From IMG/VR virus record IMGVR_UViG_2541047860_000002: 64,000 bases of DNA. One strand, 5' to 3'. Origin of the DNA: a virus. Taxonomy: Duplodnaviria > Heunggongvirae > Uroviricota > Caudoviricetes. Positions 10,811 through 63,087 of the stretch are shown here, piece after piece; the stretch's first letter is position 1; each line of letters begins with the position of its first letter. The notes beneath the pieces are model-generated. The model was given only the letters and a program-made list of their open reading frames with translations. It ran no database searches and was not told where the DNA came from. Position numbers and translations under genes: made by a program.

Positions 10811-11518
10811 TCAGAATTTGATCACTCCACTCACAGCCCCCTTTAACGCACTTGTAGCCATGCCAGCGGCACCGTTGACCAAAGCAGAAACACCTGAGCC
10901 TGCGGATGTGTATTTCTGGAAAGTGATTGGGTATGACAAGAACTCTGACACCTGATCACGTGAGCGTGTGATTTCCCCAAGTTGCGTAGGAAATACGCGC
11001 ATTTCTTCTTCCAGTTCTTTTCCGCCGTCCTGAGTCACCCGGTAGACACGGATTTTCATCAGATATTCAGGAGGAAGGTTTATTGTTCCATCAGGATTTG
11101 TTACACGAGAACGACGCTCTTTGAACCAGTCCATGATCTTGCCATCTTCGGTATCCCTCACGGTCATAGTGACCGGTCCGGCGCTAACATAGGTTGGCTT
11201 GCTGAATTCTACGCTGCCGATCACCTTGCTTTCTGTCTCGATGTTCCCACTGCTGTAGGTGATATCCTTCACGAACATATCGAAGCCGTTCAGACCATCC
11301 ACTTCAACGGTCCACTGCCACCCCTGGGCGTAACGGATACGCATAGCGGCAGCAACAATATTTTTCCCGTAGGCAATATCGCTACTGTAATTCCCGCTTA
11401 CCCCGCCGCCTGATATGGCTTTATCAAGAATGTCGCTAATGAGGTTGCTGGTGAATGATTTCGTGTTAAATGACAATGCGGTGGTCAACGTTCTACCAAC
11501 GCTGCTGAAAATACTCAC
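10811..11518 (-). CDS. Hypothetical virion structural protein
   Basis: 235-aa ORF in tail gene block. Confidence 0.4.
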   Translation of the reverse strand: MSIFSSVGRTLTTALSFNTKSFTSNLISDILDKAISGGGVSGNYSSDIAYGKNIVAAAMRIRYAQGWQWTVEVDGLNGFDMFVKDITYSSGNIETESKVIGSVEFSKPTYVSAGPVTMTVRDTEDGKIMDWFKERRSRVTNPDGTINLPPEYLMKIRVYRVTQDGGKELEEEMRVFPTQLGEITRSRDQVSEFLSYPITFQKYTSAGSGVSALVNGAAGMATSALKGAVSGVIKF

Positions 11519-11533
11519 TCTGCGCCTCCAGCG

Positions 11534-12085
11534 TTAAAAAATGGTAGCCCCCGGAATAATGGCCCGGTTTGAGGACATTTTTTCCTCAATCTCCTGCACG
11601 CGGGCATATAGCGTGGCTTCATCGGGCAGATCGGAGTAGTCAAATTTCCCGTCGATGGACGCTCTACGCTGCCGAGCGACATTTCTTACATTGATAAGCG
11701 CCTCTAGATATTCCTCCAGCATTCCAATGATTGCAGGAGGCACTTGCCATTCATCCAGCTTTCTGTCGCGTAGGTTAACCAGATACAGCATTCGTAAAGG
11801 CCAGCGTTCTGAACCTGTTAGCTCTAATTCAATAAATCCGGATAATTCATCCGAATAGACCAACAGGCCGTTGTTGTCGGTAACATGAACCAGAGAGAGA
11901 TAATCTTCTGGCAACGGAATTGCAGTACCACCAGCTTTTTCAAGTTTTAACGTTTTCACTACCCCTGCCCTGTCCTGATACGTGGTCAGAGCTTTGATCA
12001 GGAATGCTTTCAACGTTTCTTCTTCACGCACAAGCAGTGGATTAAATCGCTCTTTAACGCTTTCTAATAATTCAATTGGTGTCAT
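11534..12085 (-). CDS. Hypothetical virion structural protein
   Basis: 183-aa ORF. Confidence 0.4.
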   Translation of the reverse strand: MTPIELLESVKERFNPLLVREEETLKAFLIKALTTYQDRAGVVKTLKLEKAGGTAIPLPEDYLSLVHVTDNNGLLVYSDELSGFIELELTGSERWPLRMLYLVNLRDRKLDEWQVPPAIIGMLEEYLEALINVRNVARQRRASIDGKFDYSDLPDEATLYARVQEIEEKMSSNRAIIPGATIF

Positions 12086-37643: not shown

Positions 37644-38585
37644 TTAACTAACAATCCAGTCCGTAGCAACAACATCCTCTGGAGCTAAATCAATCGCATG
37701 GATTTTCCCATCCCGGATAGTGCGCCAGTGCTTTCGTGATCCACCTTCGGGCCATACCCATACACCTTCAGGCCAAGATGCTCGACGGCATACGATTGCA
37801 TACCCTGTTTTAATCCTCTCTCTGGCGGTATGCAACGACAGGTTTGCCTTTGGACTTTCAGGCACAGGATGGTGGATTGCCTGAAACATCCCCATCTTTG
37901 GATGATACCAGCGTTTATTGCGTGGTTCTGCCTCCGACATCACCTGCTTAAAGGCTTTCCGGAAGGGGGCCAGAGCCACAATGGAGCGTCGCGCAAGCAA
38001 GCCATCGGGGGTCAAAAACTCATGTGTATCGGTGGGAATCCGGTAAGCGTTAACCAGGTTGCGGCATTTGGCTTCAGTCAGGCCGCATTTCGCCGCCAGC
38101 TGGCGGTAGCCAATGTAACCTTCCGGCATATTGCCTTTCTTGATTTGCTCGAGTGTTTCAGCAACCATCGATACTTGTGCTGATACCTCGGCTACCTGGG
38201 CATTTACGGCGTTGATCCGGCGTTCATGCTCAAGATGCATTTGCGCCATTTCAGCCAGGATTTCGGCTTTTGATTTTAACTGTACCCGGGCATTCTCCAG
38301 TTCGCGCCAGCGGTCCACTAGCCGGGCGGTAAATTCGGGAGAGAGCTGCGCGACGACAACAATGCTGTCTCGTTTTCCTTGCTCGCCTTCGAAGACATAG
38401 ACCGGATCTTTGACAACCTTCCCTAAGTTATTGATTCTTTCGACGAACTCATTTTGAGTTTCTCGGATGACACCGCTAGCCATCATATTGCGAATGGTAC
38501 GTAAAACATTGCCGTGACGACTACCAACTAACTCTGCAATATCTAGGCTACTCATTGTCGCTTTTTGAGAGATGGACAGATTCAT
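37644..38585 (-). CDS. Phage antirepressor (Rha/Ant N-terminal domain)
   Basis: N-terminal SSLDIAELVGSRHGNVLRTIRNM typical of Rha/AntA family. Confidence 0.65.
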   Translation of the reverse strand: MNLSISQKATMSSLDIAELVGSRHGNVLRTIRNMMASGVIRETQNEFVERINNLGKVVKDPVYVFEGEQGKRDSIVVVAQLSPEFTARLVDRWRELENARVQLKSKAEILAEMAQMHLEHERRINAVNAQVAEVSAQVSMVAETLEQIKKGNMPEGYIGYRQLAAKCGLTEAKCRNLVNAYRIPTDTHEFLTPDGLLARRSIVALAPFRKAFKQVMSEAEPRNKRWYHPKMGMFQAIHHPVPESPKANLSLHTARERIKTGYAIVCRRASWPEGVWVWPEGGSRKHWRTIRDGKIHAIDLAPEDVVATDWIVS

Positions 38586-38800
38586 CAGTGCACCTCCACG
38601 CAGTTCATCGGCAGATTCCAGTAATTGAGGATCTCCATCGCATCAAGAGTGAAGCGAGCAGCAAAAATGCAGGGTTCTTCGGGAAGGTATGAGCGCGCCT
38701 CTGATTCGGTAGCAGCCATGACGCAGATATACAGGTGCTTTTGGCAGGAATAGAAACGCCAGATAAATTCAGAATGAGTTGGGGTAGGGATAGTAGCCAT
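38585..38800 (-). CDS. Small protein translationally coupled to antirepressor (Icd-like position)
   Basis: 71-aa ORF whose stop overlaps the ant start. Confidence 0.35.
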   Translation of the reverse strand: MATIPTPTHSEFIWRFYSCQKHLYICVMAATESEARSYLPEEPCIFAARFTLDAMEILNYWNLPMNCVEVH

Positions 38801-38829
38801 ATTGGCAGCCTCCTTTTGCTAATTTAAGG

Positions 38830-38940
38830 AGCTACCGCGTGAGGTCTCAATCTCAATGGCGGTAGCACTGGCTGGGTTGAGACTACCGGCGCAAAAGGGA
38901 ACCGGCCTGCCTTTCGGCAGCCCAGCCAGCACTACCATTG
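38830..38940 (-). ncRNA. Candidate structured leader / antisense-type RNA upstream of icd-ant
   Basis: Nested inverted repeats: GCTACCGC/GCGGTAGC, and GGTAGCACTGGCTGGG (38861-38876) pairing 14/16 with CCCAGCCAGCACTACC (38921-38936); no ORF. Confidence 0.25.
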
Positions 38941-39112
38941 ATCTTGGAGCTATACGCTACGTATGGCTGTGCGATGGCATGACACAAAAAAAGACGCTTT
39001 CGGCGTCTGTGTCGCCTTTTGCATTATCCGGGGTCTCAATCCCGGCACCCGTTTTTCTAAGGTGCCGTAGAAATATACCCCACGATAATGCCAGGGCGCA
39101 ACAGTCAGTATT

Positions 39113-39280
39113 TTATGCTTTGGCGGATTTTTTCCGGGCTTGCTTGCAGGCGTAGGCCATTGCTTTAGCTTTCACTTCATCCAGCTTCCCGGTGATCACT
39201 TCTTTTCCGAGAGTGACAAACCAGTCATAGCAACCGCCAGTAATGTTCTTGATTTGAAAGTTGAGGTAGCGAACAGTCAT
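39113..39280 (-). CDS. Small protein (55 aa) with strong RBS
   Basis: GGGGG 8 nt upstream of ATG; below ORF track cut-off. Confidence 0.3.
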   Translation of the reverse strand: MTVRYLNFQIKNITGGCYDWFVTLGKEVITGKLDEVKAKAMAYACKQARKKSAKA

Positions 39281-39599
39281 TTTGACACCCCCAGCGCGAG
39301 TAAAGAATGCAGATTATCGCGTGAGTGGTGGACGACGAGTGATGGGAAAAGACTGTAGTTGTTCATAGTGTAGTGACTCCTTGCTTTCGGAGCCGCCATC
39401 GACTGTTCCACGGTCTGGTGGCGGCGCAATAAAGGCTGGAACACCGTGAGTCAACGGGGGCTTTTCAGCCACCTATATTGCACCGCCATAGGTATGGCGG
39501 CGGCAATAATACGAAAAACTAAACAGTTTGTCTCAAAAAGTTGACCGGTGTGCCAATCGGTAGTGAATGTACATCGGAGAAATTTTCAATTCAACTTAA

Positions 39600-43409: not shown

Positions 43410-43450
43410 AAATTTGTTAGAACATTGATTATAGTTTTCTAACATATTAT
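43410..43450. promoter_or_regulatory. Operator-like motif pair
   Basis: TTGTTAGAACA and inverted TTTTCTAACATA upstream of ORF 43487. Confidence 0.4.
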
Positions 43451-60811: not shown

Positions 60812-60887
60812 TGGTGGCCCCTACCGGACTTGAACCGGTGACCGTGCGATTATGAGTCGCCAGCTCTAACCACTGAGCTAAAGGGCC
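60812..60887 (-). tRNA. tRNA with CAU anticodon (Ile2 lysidine-type or Met; resembles enterobacterial ileX)
   Basis: Manual cloverleaf: acceptor GGCCCTT/AGGGGCC, D-arm GCTCAGTGGTTAGAGC, anticodon loop CTCATAA, T-arm ACCGG-TTCAAGT-CCGGT, 3' CCA. Confidence 0.7.
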
Positions 60888-61041
60888 AGATTACTGTTAA
60901 TTCCGCTTACGCTTTTTGCCAGGACCGCGTAAGGCTTTTGCTGCTTGCTCGACCCCATATGCAACCACCAGCAGAAATAAAAATGTCCACCAAGGGTTCT
61001 TGTCGGCAAACGTCCAAAATTCCATCATGTTATCTATTTGG

Positions 61042-61869
61042 TTATTTCACCGGAACAAACGGAACAGCGGTATTACTGGTCATATACTGCGGTAGCGTTC
61101 CGTTCCATTTGTTGATCGCTTCCAACTCCATAACGCCGGGGTTCTGGCGCAGAGCCTCACCGCGTAAACGAATGGCATCAGCTTCAGCCTGGGCTTTTGT
61201 GCGAATGGCATCGGCCTGTCCAGCAGCTTCTGCGCGCAGCATGTTGGCTTCTGCTTCGCGTTGCTTGACTTCCTGCTCGCGTTGCAGAGTTTTCTGGTTC
61301 GCCGTGACTTTGGCATTAATGCTGTCGATAACGGTTGGCGGGTACTCCGGCTTGCCCACATATGAGAGGCTCATTACCTGAATACCGATGGGCGTCATTT
61401 CTTCCTGAATGTCTTTAAGGGCTGCATCAAGCAATTCAGATTTGCCACCGTCGATAAATTTGTCGGTGGTCATTTTGCTGGCTAACCGGTTCAGAGCATC
61501 TGCAACCTTCTGGCGTAGATCGGTATCAGTAATATCATCTACACCTTTGCGATAGGTCTGAAATACCGTTGTGACTTTTGCTGGATCAACCTTGTAGGCT
61601 ACGCCGATGTGGTAACCAATGGTTGTTCCGTCGCTCATCTGGAAGCTGAACGGCTCATCGTATGTCTTCATTTGCTTAAAGGTCGGGAAGATATAAACTT
61701 CAGTATTCAAGCCTGTCCAGTAGCGACCAACGCCAACTACTTCACCGATACCTTTATCATCCCCCAGCTTATTTACTTTGATCCCTACGTTACCTGGCTC
61801 TACCCGATCGCATCCGGTCAGACATAAAGAACCAAAAATAATCGCTGCACTAATCAACGTTTTTTTCAT
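61042..61869 (-). CDS. SPFH/band-7 domain lipoprotein
   Basis: Signal peptide with lipobox LTGC; stomatin/prohibitin-like core and Ala/Glu-rich coiled-coil tail. Confidence 0.65.
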   Translation of the reverse strand: MKKTLISAAIIFGSLCLTGCDRVEPGNVGIKVNKLGDDKGIGEVVGVGRYWTGLNTEVYIFPTFKQMKTYDEPFSFQMSDGTTIGYHIGVAYKVDPAKVTTVFQTYRKGVDDITDTDLRQKVADALNRLASKMTTDKFIDGGKSELLDAALKDIQEEMTPIGIQVMSLSYVGKPEYPPTVIDSINAKVTANQKTLQREQEVKQREAEANMLRAEAAGQADAIRTKAQAEADAIRLRGEALRQNPGVMELEAINKWNGTLPQYMTSNTAVPFVPVK

Positions 61870-62086
61870 TAATCAATTTCCTGGTTTTTTCACGAAAAAA
61901 GACTACTGCAAAAGCCGGGTAAATGAGCGCGAGAAGGACTCCCAACAATACAAGTATTGTGCTGTCAGATGAGATCATATTTGGCAAAAGCCAAACATAC
62001 AGAACCAGTGACACAATCAAACAGAGGACGACATAAATATATAACCGCACCCATAGCGTTCGACATTTGTTCGGATTGTTCTGCAT
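61850..62086 (-). CDS. Small two-TM membrane protein, overlapping start of SPFH gene
   Basis: 78-aa ORF, two hydrophobic helices. Confidence 0.4.
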   Translation of the reverse strand: MQNNPNKCRTLWVRLYIYVVLCLIVSLVLYVWLLPNMISSDSTILVLLGVLLALIYPAFAVVFFREKTRKLINEKNVD

Positions 62087-62349
62087 CCTCTCACTCCATT
62101 ATTTACCGAATAAAAAAGCTGCGGTGCCTGGTGCCTCCAGGTGACGTTAACCAGTTAACAATTAACGCCGGGATGTTTGACTTAACCACTAAGGAGGATT
62201 GTTTTAACTGTTCCGCGTGCGCTTAGCCGCATTCACCGCAATGGTAAGAGCACTTGGCTGGCTGGGCGGCGATGACGCCTGTACGCATTTGGTGATCCGG
62301 TTCTGCTTCCGGCATTCGCTTAATTAGCCAAATACTCTTAACGTTGCAC

Positions 62350-62436
62350 TGGCGGAGAGTAATGGAATCGAACCATCATCGCTTGCGCAATGGGACGGTT
62401 TTCAAGACCGCTTGAGCACCATGCTCCCTACTCTCC
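62350..62436 (-). tRNA. tRNA-Ser(UGA)-like, type II (long variable arm), atypical D-arm
   Basis: Acceptor GGAGAGT/ACTCTCC, anticodon stem-loop GCGGT-CTTGAAA-ACCGT, T-loop TTCGATT, 3' GCCA. Confidence 0.4.
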
Positions 62437-62838
62437 AGTGATTGTGATGGTCGGTGCTGAACTCCGACACAGGGTTGTAGCAAGCCCCGCAAAGCGCGCA
62501 CTACTGTAGTTGCGGCACATCAGCCTGTGCATTCACCACAATGTTGAGAACACTGGTTGTCACGCTGCAACGCAACATTTATTCATAGATTGGGATATGA
62601 CCCCGTTACGCCAGTGTTCTCAACGTTGTGGTGCCGGTTACGGTTCCGGCCAGGCCTCTTCCTCAACGGGGTGTTCTCCATACGGACTACCGTTTATTGG
62701 TCGTTCCTGCGGTTTATGTTGTGAAGCCAGATGCTTATCTTCTGGTTGCTTCAAAGAGCTGCACTTCATCACAACGGTAAGAGCACTCGATGCATTTAAG
62801 CCAAGCCCCATAAGGGAGAATGCCCTTACCTGTTGTGT

Positions 62839-62914
62839 TGGTGCCGGTTAACGGACTCGAACCGCTGACATCCTGCTTACAAGGCAGGCGCTCTACCAAC
62901 TGAGCTAAACCGGC
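62839..62914 (-). tRNA. tRNA-Thr(UGU)
   Basis: Acceptor GCCGGTT/AACCGGC, D-arm GCTCAGTTGGTAGAGC, anticodon loop CTTGTAA, T-loop TTCGAGT, CCA. Confidence 0.8.
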
Positions 62915-62918
62915 AATT

Positions 62919-63005
62919 TGGTGGGGAGTGATGGAGTCGAACCACCCGAGTCGCAATGACAGTAGATTTACAGTCTACCCCGCTACCCCTACGGACTAAC
63001 TCCCC
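62919..63005 (-). tRNA. tRNA-Tyr(GUA), type II
   Basis: Acceptor GGGGAGT/ACTCCCC, anticodon stem-loop GTAGA-CTGTAAA-TCTAC, 15-nt variable arm, T-loop TTCGACT, CCA. Confidence 0.6.
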
Positions 63006-63010
63006 TAAAT

Positions 63011-63087
63011 TGGCGATGGTGGGTGGATTCGAACCACCGACCGACAGCTTAGAAGGCTGCTGCTCTATCCTACTGAGCTACACCATC
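63011..63087 (-). tRNA. tRNA-Arg(UCU)
   Basis: Acceptor GATGGTG/CACCATC, D-arm GCTCAGTAGGATAGAGC, anticodon loop CTTCTAA, T-arm GGTGG-TTCGAAT-CCACC, GCCA. Confidence 0.75.

Follow-up and report, generated by a model that had tools for sequence, protein, structure and literature searches.

Organisation of the icd-antirepressor leader

The window, a stretch of 64,000 nucleotides, corresponds to Escherichia phage D6 (MF356679 / NC_050154), a P1-like plasmid prophage, with 99-100% identity; a 741-bp query taken at the locus discussed here matches over its full length at 99.2%, and the 313-bp leader is 100% identical to D6. On the minus strand, downstream of positions 38801-39112, the D6 record carries an icd homologue (D6_83) and a putative anti-repressor (D6_82), while a homologue of P1 ref and two small hypothetical ORFs lie upstream. 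No RNA gene is annotated within 38801-39112 in the D6 record, the interval being spanned instead by a plus-strand 'hypothetical protein orf84'. In D6 this interval forms the leader of an immI-type immunity operon. The RNA features found in it (Table 1) are placed as in other c4 elements: they precede icd and the antirepressor gene in an operon of the same orientation, and ant is coupled to icd by the overlap of its start with the icd stop (UGAUG). The leader is common, being present in about 310 of 5,426 complete E. coli genomes and nearly always plasmid-borne.

Table 1. Features of the D6 immI-type leader and adjoining genes (window coordinates)
Feature	Position	Strand	Description or basis
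Candidate sigma-70 promoter of the leader	39072..39101	-	-35 TTGCGC (39101-39096), 18-nt spacer, -10 TATATT (39077-39072); read from sequence
IsrK-type leader RNA, 79 nt	38987..39065	-	Hairpin 1 (39065-39045), hairpin 2 with a1 in its loop, single-stranded b1, terminator
a1, UUGAGAC	39033..39039	-	Loop of IsrK-type hairpin 2; complementary to a'
b1, GCAAAAGG	39015..39022	-	Single-stranded linker before terminator; complementary to b'
Intrinsic terminator of IsrK-type RNA	38986..39008	-	AGACGC-CGAAA-GCGUCU, then U run; terminator scan; last hairpin of the Rfam isrK alignment
C4 antisense RNA gene	38855..38942	-	Rfam RF01695 match; minimum free energy (MFE) fold; helix covariation
Predicted mature c4	38936-38858 (79 nt)	-	5' end at AU/GGU (slash, cleavage site), 3' tail GCC(A)
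b', CCUUUUGC	38891..38898	-	12-nt loop of c4 hairpin II
a', GUCUCAA	38877..38883	-	Unpaired strand between hairpin II and 3' arm of basal stem
a2-presenting hairpin	38831..38866	-	c4 3' arm and tail (38866-38859) with 38838-38831; a2 in loop
a2, UUGAGAC	38844..38850	-	Loop of GCTACCGC hairpin; complementary to a'
b2, GCAAAAGG	38812..38819	-	Overlaps icd Shine-Dalgarno AAGGAGG (38815-38809)
icd-like gene, 71 aa (D6_83)	38585..38800	-	NCBIfam NF033153, 50.3 bits against 25
Rha-type antirepressor gene, 313 aa (D6_82)	37644..38585	-	Pfam PF09669 (Phage_pRha), 36.9 bits against 29.9
orf84 of D6, 99 aa	38856-39155	+	D6 record annotation
'ash family protein', 39 aa	38938-38819	-	RefSeq annotation; over c4; counterpart of Gifsy-1 orf45

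A scan of the whole window with Rfam covariance models at gathering thresholds revealed two full-length matches in the leader, both on the minus strand, to the C4 antisense RNA (RF01695) and to isrK (RF01394). The C4 match at 38942-38855 reaches 76 bits against a gathering score of 45 and covers model positions 1-87 of 87, and thereby exceeds the scores obtained by the same model for the c4 RNAs defined by experiment in P1 (68.8 bits) and P7 (69.6 bits). A candidate c4-type antisense RNA had been proposed for this region by a sequence-only reading, which named an Rfam scan and an analysis of folding and covariance across relatives as checks, and the proposal is borne out by the full-length C4 match, by a P1-like gene order and by the covarying loops and targets described below. 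The c4 family assignment of that riboregulator thus stands, but a second RNA in the same leader, the IsrK-type RNA carrying a1 and b1, had gone unrecognised.

Folding of the leader is well beyond chance, with the 88-nt C4 segment having a minimum free energy of -49.1 kcal/mol (z = -6.3, none of 200 shuffles as good) and the minus strand of the whole 323-nt leader a z of -6.8 (0 of 100 shuffles as good). In the predicted c4 fold, a basal stem formed by 38936-38921 with 38876-38861 encloses hairpin I (38920-38907) and hairpin II (38906-38885), and both a' and b' are unpaired in the MFE structure. The 16-nt inverted pair noticed earlier at 38861-38876 and 38921-38936 is this basal stem, in which all 16 positions pair if G-U is allowed; the corresponding inverted repeat I1 has arms of 19 nt (38861-38879 and 38918-38936) that are 84% Watson-Crick complementary. 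The long repeats emphasised at the outset are hence real and structural, but the antisense contacts reside in the short a' and b' segments and not in these repeats.

The ends of c4 were assigned by taking the G after AU in AUGGU as the start and the NCC following the 3' arm as the end, a rule that yields the annotated 77-nt P1 c4 exactly and 79 nt (38936-38858) in D6. The sequence prerequisites for RNase P are present in D6 c4, with AU/GGU at 38938-38934 and a CCA-like 3' tail (GCCA) past the stem, and the GGU start fits the GGW motif at which RNase P cleaves c4 of P1 and P7 (PMC5320573).

With 59.1 bits (gathering score 50), the isrK match extends from 39065 to 38987 and covers the full model (1-77 of 77). 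The c4-a1b1 model RF03163 overlaps isrK at 39078-39025 without reaching its gathering score in the window (21.7 bits versus 46.7, E = 0.004). The leaders of P1, P7 and a second D6 cassette pass RF03163 at 51-56 bits and the same three remain below the isrK threshold, and in Gifsy-1 RF03163, described as 'a1, b1 targets of C4', overlaps isrK as well. The three hairpins and a U run are nevertheless shared by the P1 leader. IsrK is thus the a1/b1 leader of one branch of c4 systems, and the a1/b1 leader in the D6 window is the isrK-type variant.

The hairpin at about 38985-39020, earlier described as terminator-like, proved to be a minus-strand intrinsic terminator with its stem at 39008-38992 and a T run to about 38986. 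The candidate leader promoter places +1 near 39065, and its -35 and -10 hexamers are equidistant from the first base of the RNA in D6, in JL22-type, lambdoid and Klebsiella relatives and in Gifsy-1 (TTGACA/TATATT), where the IsrK promoter and start site have been experimentally mapped (PMC4825925). A generic promoter scan missed this promoter because its -35 hexamer matches the consensus at just 3 of 6 positions. Between the terminator and c4, a consensus scan found no separate c4 promoter; with the terminator situated between the leader promoter and c4, synthesis of c4 would need read-through or an undetected promoter. Near 39066-39300 there is no match within 3 mismatches to the P1 C1 operator consensus, which is that of P1 and may not be that of D6, and the sole match to it in the window lies at 43410.

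Both a' and b' have two exact complements on the same strand, one downstream of c4 and one upstream inside the IsrK-type RNA, such that a'/a2 forms 7 of 7 pairs and b'/b2 8 of 8 pairs in the D6 leader. The icd Shine-Dalgarno sequence overlapped by b2 lies 8 nt ahead of the icd AUG at 38800. The composite TTGAGAC-N(5-35)-GCAAAAGG occurs three times in the 64 kb (a1b1, a2b2 and c4 itself on the other strand) versus 0.01 expected, and a search of the other 27 kb of D6 found none.

The GCTACCGC/GCGGTAGC hairpin, singled out by the sequence-only reading among the repeats, is also real: it corresponds to inverted repeat I7, with arms at 38831-38838 and 38859-38866 that are complementary at 8 of 8 positions, and is a conserved hairpin that presents a2. 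It joins the last bases of the c4 3' arm and the tail to a segment 20 nt downstream, and this hairpin and the bottom of the c4 basal stem are mutually exclusive. Among relatives it is 94% paired, with 4 of its 8 pairs changed on both sides, one of these double-changed pairs using a tail base outside the c4 stem. Such a hairpin may present a2 in transcripts in which c4 is unfolded or not yet excised, or may influence processing by hiding the NCC tail.

Covariation of helices and target pairings among relatives

A total of 103 loci was gathered from 80 IMG/VR contigs and 8 genome contigs, both sets found via the Icd protein, and from named phages and the remaining D6 sequence, the named phages comprising JL22, RCS47, vB_EcoM-673R5, phiP27, two Stx-converting phages, APSE-1, APSE-7, Klebsiella phage Kp4865-1, Gifsy-1, P1 and P7. 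The whole leader aligns at 93 places, representing 54 distinct sequences. Two of the 8 loci obtained by the Icd-alignment scan of genome contigs, from Erwinia and Martelella, are without a C4 match. When 19 whole leaders were aligned with MAFFT (A2), a' and b' were out of register in rows of P1-type and APSE leaders, and for this reason intermolecular pairs were counted on site windows that had been anchored and concatenated (A4), while 13 well-aligned rows (A3) served for the intramolecular ones.

When the inner part of c4 was searched without bias for complementarity to its flanks in 19 diverse leaders, b'-b1, b'-b2 and a'-a1 were recovered at constant positions in nearly all of them, and a'-a2 in most; in P1-type leaders a2 falls outside the top matches of this search and was taken from guided extraction. 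These 19 leaders contain 9 distinct a' and 12 distinct b' sequences in 17 combinations, and the types found in relatives include GUUCCAA and CCUUUGAC. Cognate pairing amounts to 7.0 of 7 positions at the a site and 7.9 of 8 at the b site, versus 4.9 of 7 and 4.3 of 8, respectively, for non-cognate pairing, the target windows being the best-pairing windows inside small neighbourhoods, which gives a slight bias toward cognate counts. For a'/a2 and b'/b2 together (18-19 relatives, P1, P7 and Gifsy-1 among them), 99.3% of cells are paired and 12 of 15 pairs are changed on both sides, and for a1/a' with b1/b' (18 leaders) the corresponding values are 98.9% and again 12 of 15. With both sets of targets, none of 500 shuffles reached the observed values for cells paired and covariation score, and the best slid-register control was 46% paired. 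RNAduplex energies of cognate versus non-cognate cassettes were noisy, because flanking stem bases found other partners, and were not relied on.

Even when the D6-type group is taken by itself, two a types and two b types are found in each of their four combinations, and every change of a' goes along with changes of a1 and a2 (likewise, a change of b' with those of b1 and b2), a pattern known from the heteroimmunity of P1 versus P7. In a single relative (L043), a1 pairs with a' of the same leader at 6 of 7 positions, which indicates that there is no strict requirement for a1.

The intramolecular helices of c4 and of the IsrK-type RNA, counted in the 13 leaders of A3, have 97.6% of cells paired and 17 pairs changed on both sides, with 0 of 500 shuffles as good and slid controls at 48% or less; within c4, double-sided changes affect 8 pairs of the basal stem, 4 of hairpin I and 1 of hairpin II. 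Several invariant G-U pairs in these helices make sense for the minus strand only. Helices and target pairings alike therefore covary across relatives, and the covariance check named by the sequence-only reading agrees with its proposal, as did the folding.

Relation to c4 of P1 and P7 and to IsrK of Gifsy-1

The c4 RNA was described for the immI regions of P1 and P7 (Citron and Schuster 1990, 1992, as cited in PMC5320573), its mechanism is summarised in PMC5320573, and in both phages it acts in trans and defines heteroimmunity (PMC12197685; PMC5320573). The P1 record gives the order operator Oc4, promoters P2c4 and P1c4, a1, b1, 77-nt c4, a2, b2, icd and ant1/ant2, and the analogy to the P1 antirepressor operon drawn from the D6 sequence holds feature by feature, since a1-b1-c4-a2-b2-icd-ant follow each other in the same order, b2 again lies at the ribosome-binding site of icd, and icd and ant overlap. 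Further shared features are membership of RF01695, the three-helix fold with b' in the loop of hairpin II and a' in the junction strand, the AU/GGU 5' boundary, the NCC tail and an Icd that is 63% identical between D6 and P1. Differences concern the specificity (a' GUCUCAA and b' CCUUUUGC in D6, CUGUCAA and CACUAAC in P1), the sequence of the basal stem, the length of the predicted RNA (79 nt versus 77), the antirepressor, which is of Rha/Roi type in D6 and Ant1/Ant2 in P1, and the a1/b1 leader, which follows the isrK model in D6 and the P1-type c4-a1b1 model in P1. Unlike that of P1, the D6 promoter is also without a match to the P1-type C1 operator, as judged by the consensus of P1, which may not be that of D6. 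The D6 element is accordingly a standard c4 system, an ordinary and already known member of this family, and homologues of c4, icd and the antirepressor have been published for a D6-like prophage, in its ImmI-related region (PMC6799933).

A closely similar arrangement is observed in Gifsy-1, where isrK (34316-34240) is followed by a C4 RNA (34214-34131, 69 bits). In both phages an IsrK-type RNA with its own terminator precedes a C4-family RNA located about 25-45 nt downstream and then the antirepressor gene, and the positions of the promoter hexamers and the placement of a1 in the loop of hairpin 2 are likewise shared. Gifsy-1 is without icd, with a2/b2 directly before anrP, whereas D6 has icd; the D6 ORF that begins at the c4 AUG stops before b2. 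The published model for Gifsy-1 (Hershko-Shalev et al. 2016) is based on translation of orf45 and on activation in trans by IsrK (PMC4825925). That paper makes no mention of c4, and its text contains none of the P1- or Rfam-related terms looked for in it (PMC4825925); a 2025 review handles IsrK and c4 as unrelated.

In the numbering of the Gifsy-1 paper, which was checked against A107 (first AUG of 'orf45'), a1 (UUGGCGU, 26-32) contains G28 and G31, and a' (ACGCCAA, 158-164) contains C162 and C159, and in the a1-a' register G28 stands opposite C162 and G31 opposite C159. The compensatory mutants G28A/C162U and G31A/C159U (PMC4825925) consequently fall on a1 and a' and constitute direct evidence for a1-a' pairing in the c4 family. 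The Gifsy-1 IsrK/orf45/STnc1160 locus looks like the same a1b1-c4 system, which suggests that the short IsrK-type RNA may be able to titrate c4. The IsrK-c4 link could simplify the published Gifsy-1 model. Binding of IsrK to Hfq and its activation of antirepressor translation in trans are known from Gifsy-1 alone (PMC4825925).

As a separate observation, the AUG of Gifsy-1 'orf45' is the AU/GG at the 5' boundary of c4. STnc1160, a stable processed RNA of about 80 nt (PMC4825925), coincides in position with Gifsy-1 c4.

The CI RNA of P4 with its seqA/seqC targets is named as a structural analogue in the part of PMC4825925 that deals with it. According to that description, it resembles D6 c4 as a small immunity RNA processed from the leader of its own operon with targets upstream and downstream, and differs in acting by premature transcription termination (PMC4825925), while D6 c4 would act by masking a ribosome-binding site.

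Regulatory interpretation and alternative readings

The RNA encoded at 38942-38855 is very probably a c4-type antisense regulator of icd and ant. Judging from experiments on P1, P7 and Gifsy-1, its synthesis and action would proceed as follows. The promoter near 39100-39072 would start a minus-strand transcript at about 39065, whose first 79 nt would constitute the IsrK-type RNA, in which a hairpin loop displays a1, a single-stranded linker holds b1 and the intrinsic terminator forms the end. Partial read-through of this terminator would give transcripts that contain c4, from which RNase P is predicted, by homology with P1, to generate by cleavage at AU/GG (5' end at 38936) a stable RNA of about 79 nt. 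In this RNA, a' (GUCUCAA) and b' (CCUUUUGC) would be exposed and pair with a2 and b2 in the icd-ant mRNA, and, as b2 overlaps the icd Shine-Dalgarno sequence, such pairing would block icd translation and hence prevent expression of the overlapping antirepressor gene; in P1, loss of icd translation leads to premature transcription termination. With the antirepressor silenced, the prophage would stay repressed and gain a sequence-specific superinfection immunity. The least certain step concerns a1/b1, which may be a site for c4 on its own leader or may act as a decoy when freed as a short terminated RNA. Most likely, c4 and the IsrK-type leader together keep the antirepressor off. Since specificities can be swapped (9 by 12 types, 17 combinations), superinfection immunity of P1-like and lambdoid prophages would be diversified by changing a few nucleotides of a single RNA and of its targets.

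In a wider scheme, which is possible but somewhat less likely than not, three RNAs would make up a switch, with the IsrK-type RNA as its a1/b1 half: within the nascent leader it would allow c4 to act on the transcript that contains it, and in its terminated form it would imitate the target and titrate c4, which turns on the antirepressor, the Gifsy-1 'orf45'/STnc1160 being a c4 RNA and IsrK its anti-antisense. If true, this switch would merge two systems that are treated separately in the papers cited here, and overexpression of the D6 IsrK-type RNA would be predicted to induce the prophage. The contrasting reading, that the RNA at 39065-38987 works on its own, as a trans-acting, Hfq-dependent sRNA with targets in the host and no part in the c4 circuit, could draw on its own promoter-like site, its own intrinsic terminator and the classification of isrK by Rfam as an Hfq-binding sRNA, but is quite unlikely, given that a1 and b1 covary with a' and b' of c4 across the 18 leaders, that the tandem of IsrK or a1b1 with c4 is kept in P1-like, lambdoid, APSE and Gifsy-1 phages and that the RF03163 motif of C4 targets coincides with isrK in Gifsy-1 and, below threshold, in D6. 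Very unlikely is also a purely cis-acting role of these structures, as a transcription attenuator or as alternative leader folds with no diffusible antisense RNA: the trans action of P1 and P7 c4 in heteroimmunity (PMC12197685; PMC5320573), the processed RNA of about 80 nt that is stably made at the corresponding place in Gifsy-1 and the modular swapping of a/b specificities, which is what a trans-acting immunity determinant predicts, all speak against it. Such a role would nevertheless account for the mutual exclusion of the a2 hairpin and the c4 basal stem, each with covariation support, and for the intrinsic terminator inside the leader, and cis-acting alternative structures have been demonstrated in Gifsy-1 (PMC4825925).

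The statement of the sequence-only reading that the region contains no ORF is incorrect, as the 99-aa plus-strand ORF and the 39-aa minus-strand ORF of Table 1 are both present. That one of them is the actual product and the hairpins incidental is nonetheless very unlikely, even though both are annotated in public records, the 39-aa ORF barely passes Pfam PF10554 (Phage_ASH; 26.8 bits versus 26) and, in Gifsy-1, mutations of the orf45 start codons or an early stop lowered the IsrK-dependent activation of anrP (PMC4825925). On the plus strand, orf84 has no Pfam match and is interrupted by stop codons in close relatives, in which the longest open stretch is 59 aa. The minus-strand ORF is not conserved in length: the D6 copy has 39 aa, a 1-nt deletion leaves 15 aa in APSE and Kp4865-1, and in other relatives it extends over at least 56 aa in frame with icd. 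Its variable columns are spread evenly over the codon positions (17/14/17), its amino-acid identity (0.50) is below its nucleotide identity (0.63) and non-synonymous codon differences outnumber synonymous ones (340 versus 86); the substitutions instead keep the RNA helices. Its AUG, moreover, has no Shine-Dalgarno-like motif just upstream as inspected by eye, and sits at the predicted RNase P site within the basal stem. We conclude that the minus-strand ORF is a by-product of the conserved RNA gene. The Ash protein family (PF10554) as a conserved coding ORF was rejected on account of the borderline score, the variable length and the absence of third-position bias, and it is a possibility that the 'Ash family protein' of Pfam and RefSeq is largely the translation of c4-type RNA genes. 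In the D6 GenBank record and in RefSeq, protein ORFs ('hypothetical protein orf84' and 'ash family protein') are thus placed over an RNA immunity gene, an annotation that can be corrected.

D6 also has a second immI-like cassette at about 20.7-21.2 kb, outside the window. It resembles the first in having a C4 RNA (69.6 bits), an a1b1 leader, icd (D6_19) and a Roi-type antirepressor gene (D6_18), and differs by a P1-type leader (RF03163, 55.9 bits), a' CUGUCAA and b' CGUAAGU. Owing to this difference in specificity, no cross-talk with c4 of the window is expected. Its presence agrees with the two c4/icd regions reported in the D6-like prophage pYU39_89 (PMC6799933).

Placement and variation of the cassette in relatives

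Among P1-like Punaviruses, the cassette composed of IsrK, c4, icd and the antirepressor gene adjoins pacB in JL22 (L091), RCS47 (L092) and 673R5 (L097), with a leader identity to the D6 cassette of 86-93% in JL22 and RCS47, in both of which c1 lies on the other flank, opposite pacB. Since each of these three genomes also carries a second icd locus besides this pacB-adjacent cassette, the cassette seems able to move from one genomic site to another. The leader at L043:1233-1504, an apparent recombinant, combines a GAGAC-type a1 with a GGAAC-type a' and a2, with a1/a' pairing at 6/7 positions; no other leader in the set has an a1 that mismatches its own c4. Enterobacterial P1/D6-type c4-icd cassettes are also present on two short JAFAFU01 contigs labelled 'MAG: Bacillota bacterium' (L003 and L007), where they are probably a binning or contamination artefact.

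The IsrK/c4 tandem of Gifsy-1

On the minus strand of Gifsy-1 (NC_010392, 34131-34329), an Rfam C4 RNA is located 26 nt downstream of isrK, and its position coincides with STnc1160. The boundary at the c4 5' end (AU|GG) is the AUG of the published 'orf45'. The compensatory mutations reported for this locus, G28A/C162U and G31A/C159U (PMC4825925), map exactly onto a1 and a'. Of the P1- and Rfam-related terms looked for in the text of that paper, none occurs there.

Protein ORFs annotated over the RNA genes

Two protein annotations overlie the RNA genes of the leader, namely the RefSeq 'ash family protein' of 39 aa, which scores 26.8 bits against Pfam PF10554 (cut-off 26), and D6 'orf84', and coding-type conservation was found in neither of them. 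PF10554 may in part be a model of translated c4-type RNA genes. The ORF opened by the c4 AUG ends in D6 at a UAG just ahead of b2 and in APSE and Kp4865-1 after 15 codons; in the leaders L045, L096, L002 and L098 it has no stop before icd and is in the same frame.

Possible additional pairing and neighbouring features

The c4 segment GGUAGUCUC (38879-38887, minus strand), overlapping a', could in addition base-pair with GAGGCUGCC (38804-38812, minus strand), which sits between the SD and the AUG of icd. This pairing of 9 bp, two of them G-U, is seen only with the D6 a type and hence may be incidental. A search for a family match to the 55-aa ORF nearest the leader gave none. A promoter-like site further upstream could additionally supply transcription into the leader. 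The second immI-like cassette of D6, adjoined by repL, differs in a'/b' specificity from the c4 of the window, to which it appears orthogonal.

Coordinates of annotated and neighbouring features (window positions unless stated)
Feature	Position	Strand	Remarks
'ash family protein'	38819-38938	minus	RefSeq
orf84	38856-39155	plus	D6
Small ORF, 55 aa	39113-39280	minus	D6 orf85/orf86 region, between ref and leader promoter
Small ORF, 55 aa	39277-39444	minus	D6 orf85/orf86 region, between ref and leader promoter
Promoter-like site	39534-39506		
Cluster of four tRNA genes	60815-63087	minus	Rfam tRNA, 42-75 bits
Second immI-like cassette	D6 MF356679 (L102) 11494-11971	minus	Outside window; P1-type c4-a1b1 leader, C4, icd (D6_19), Roi antirepressor (D6_18)
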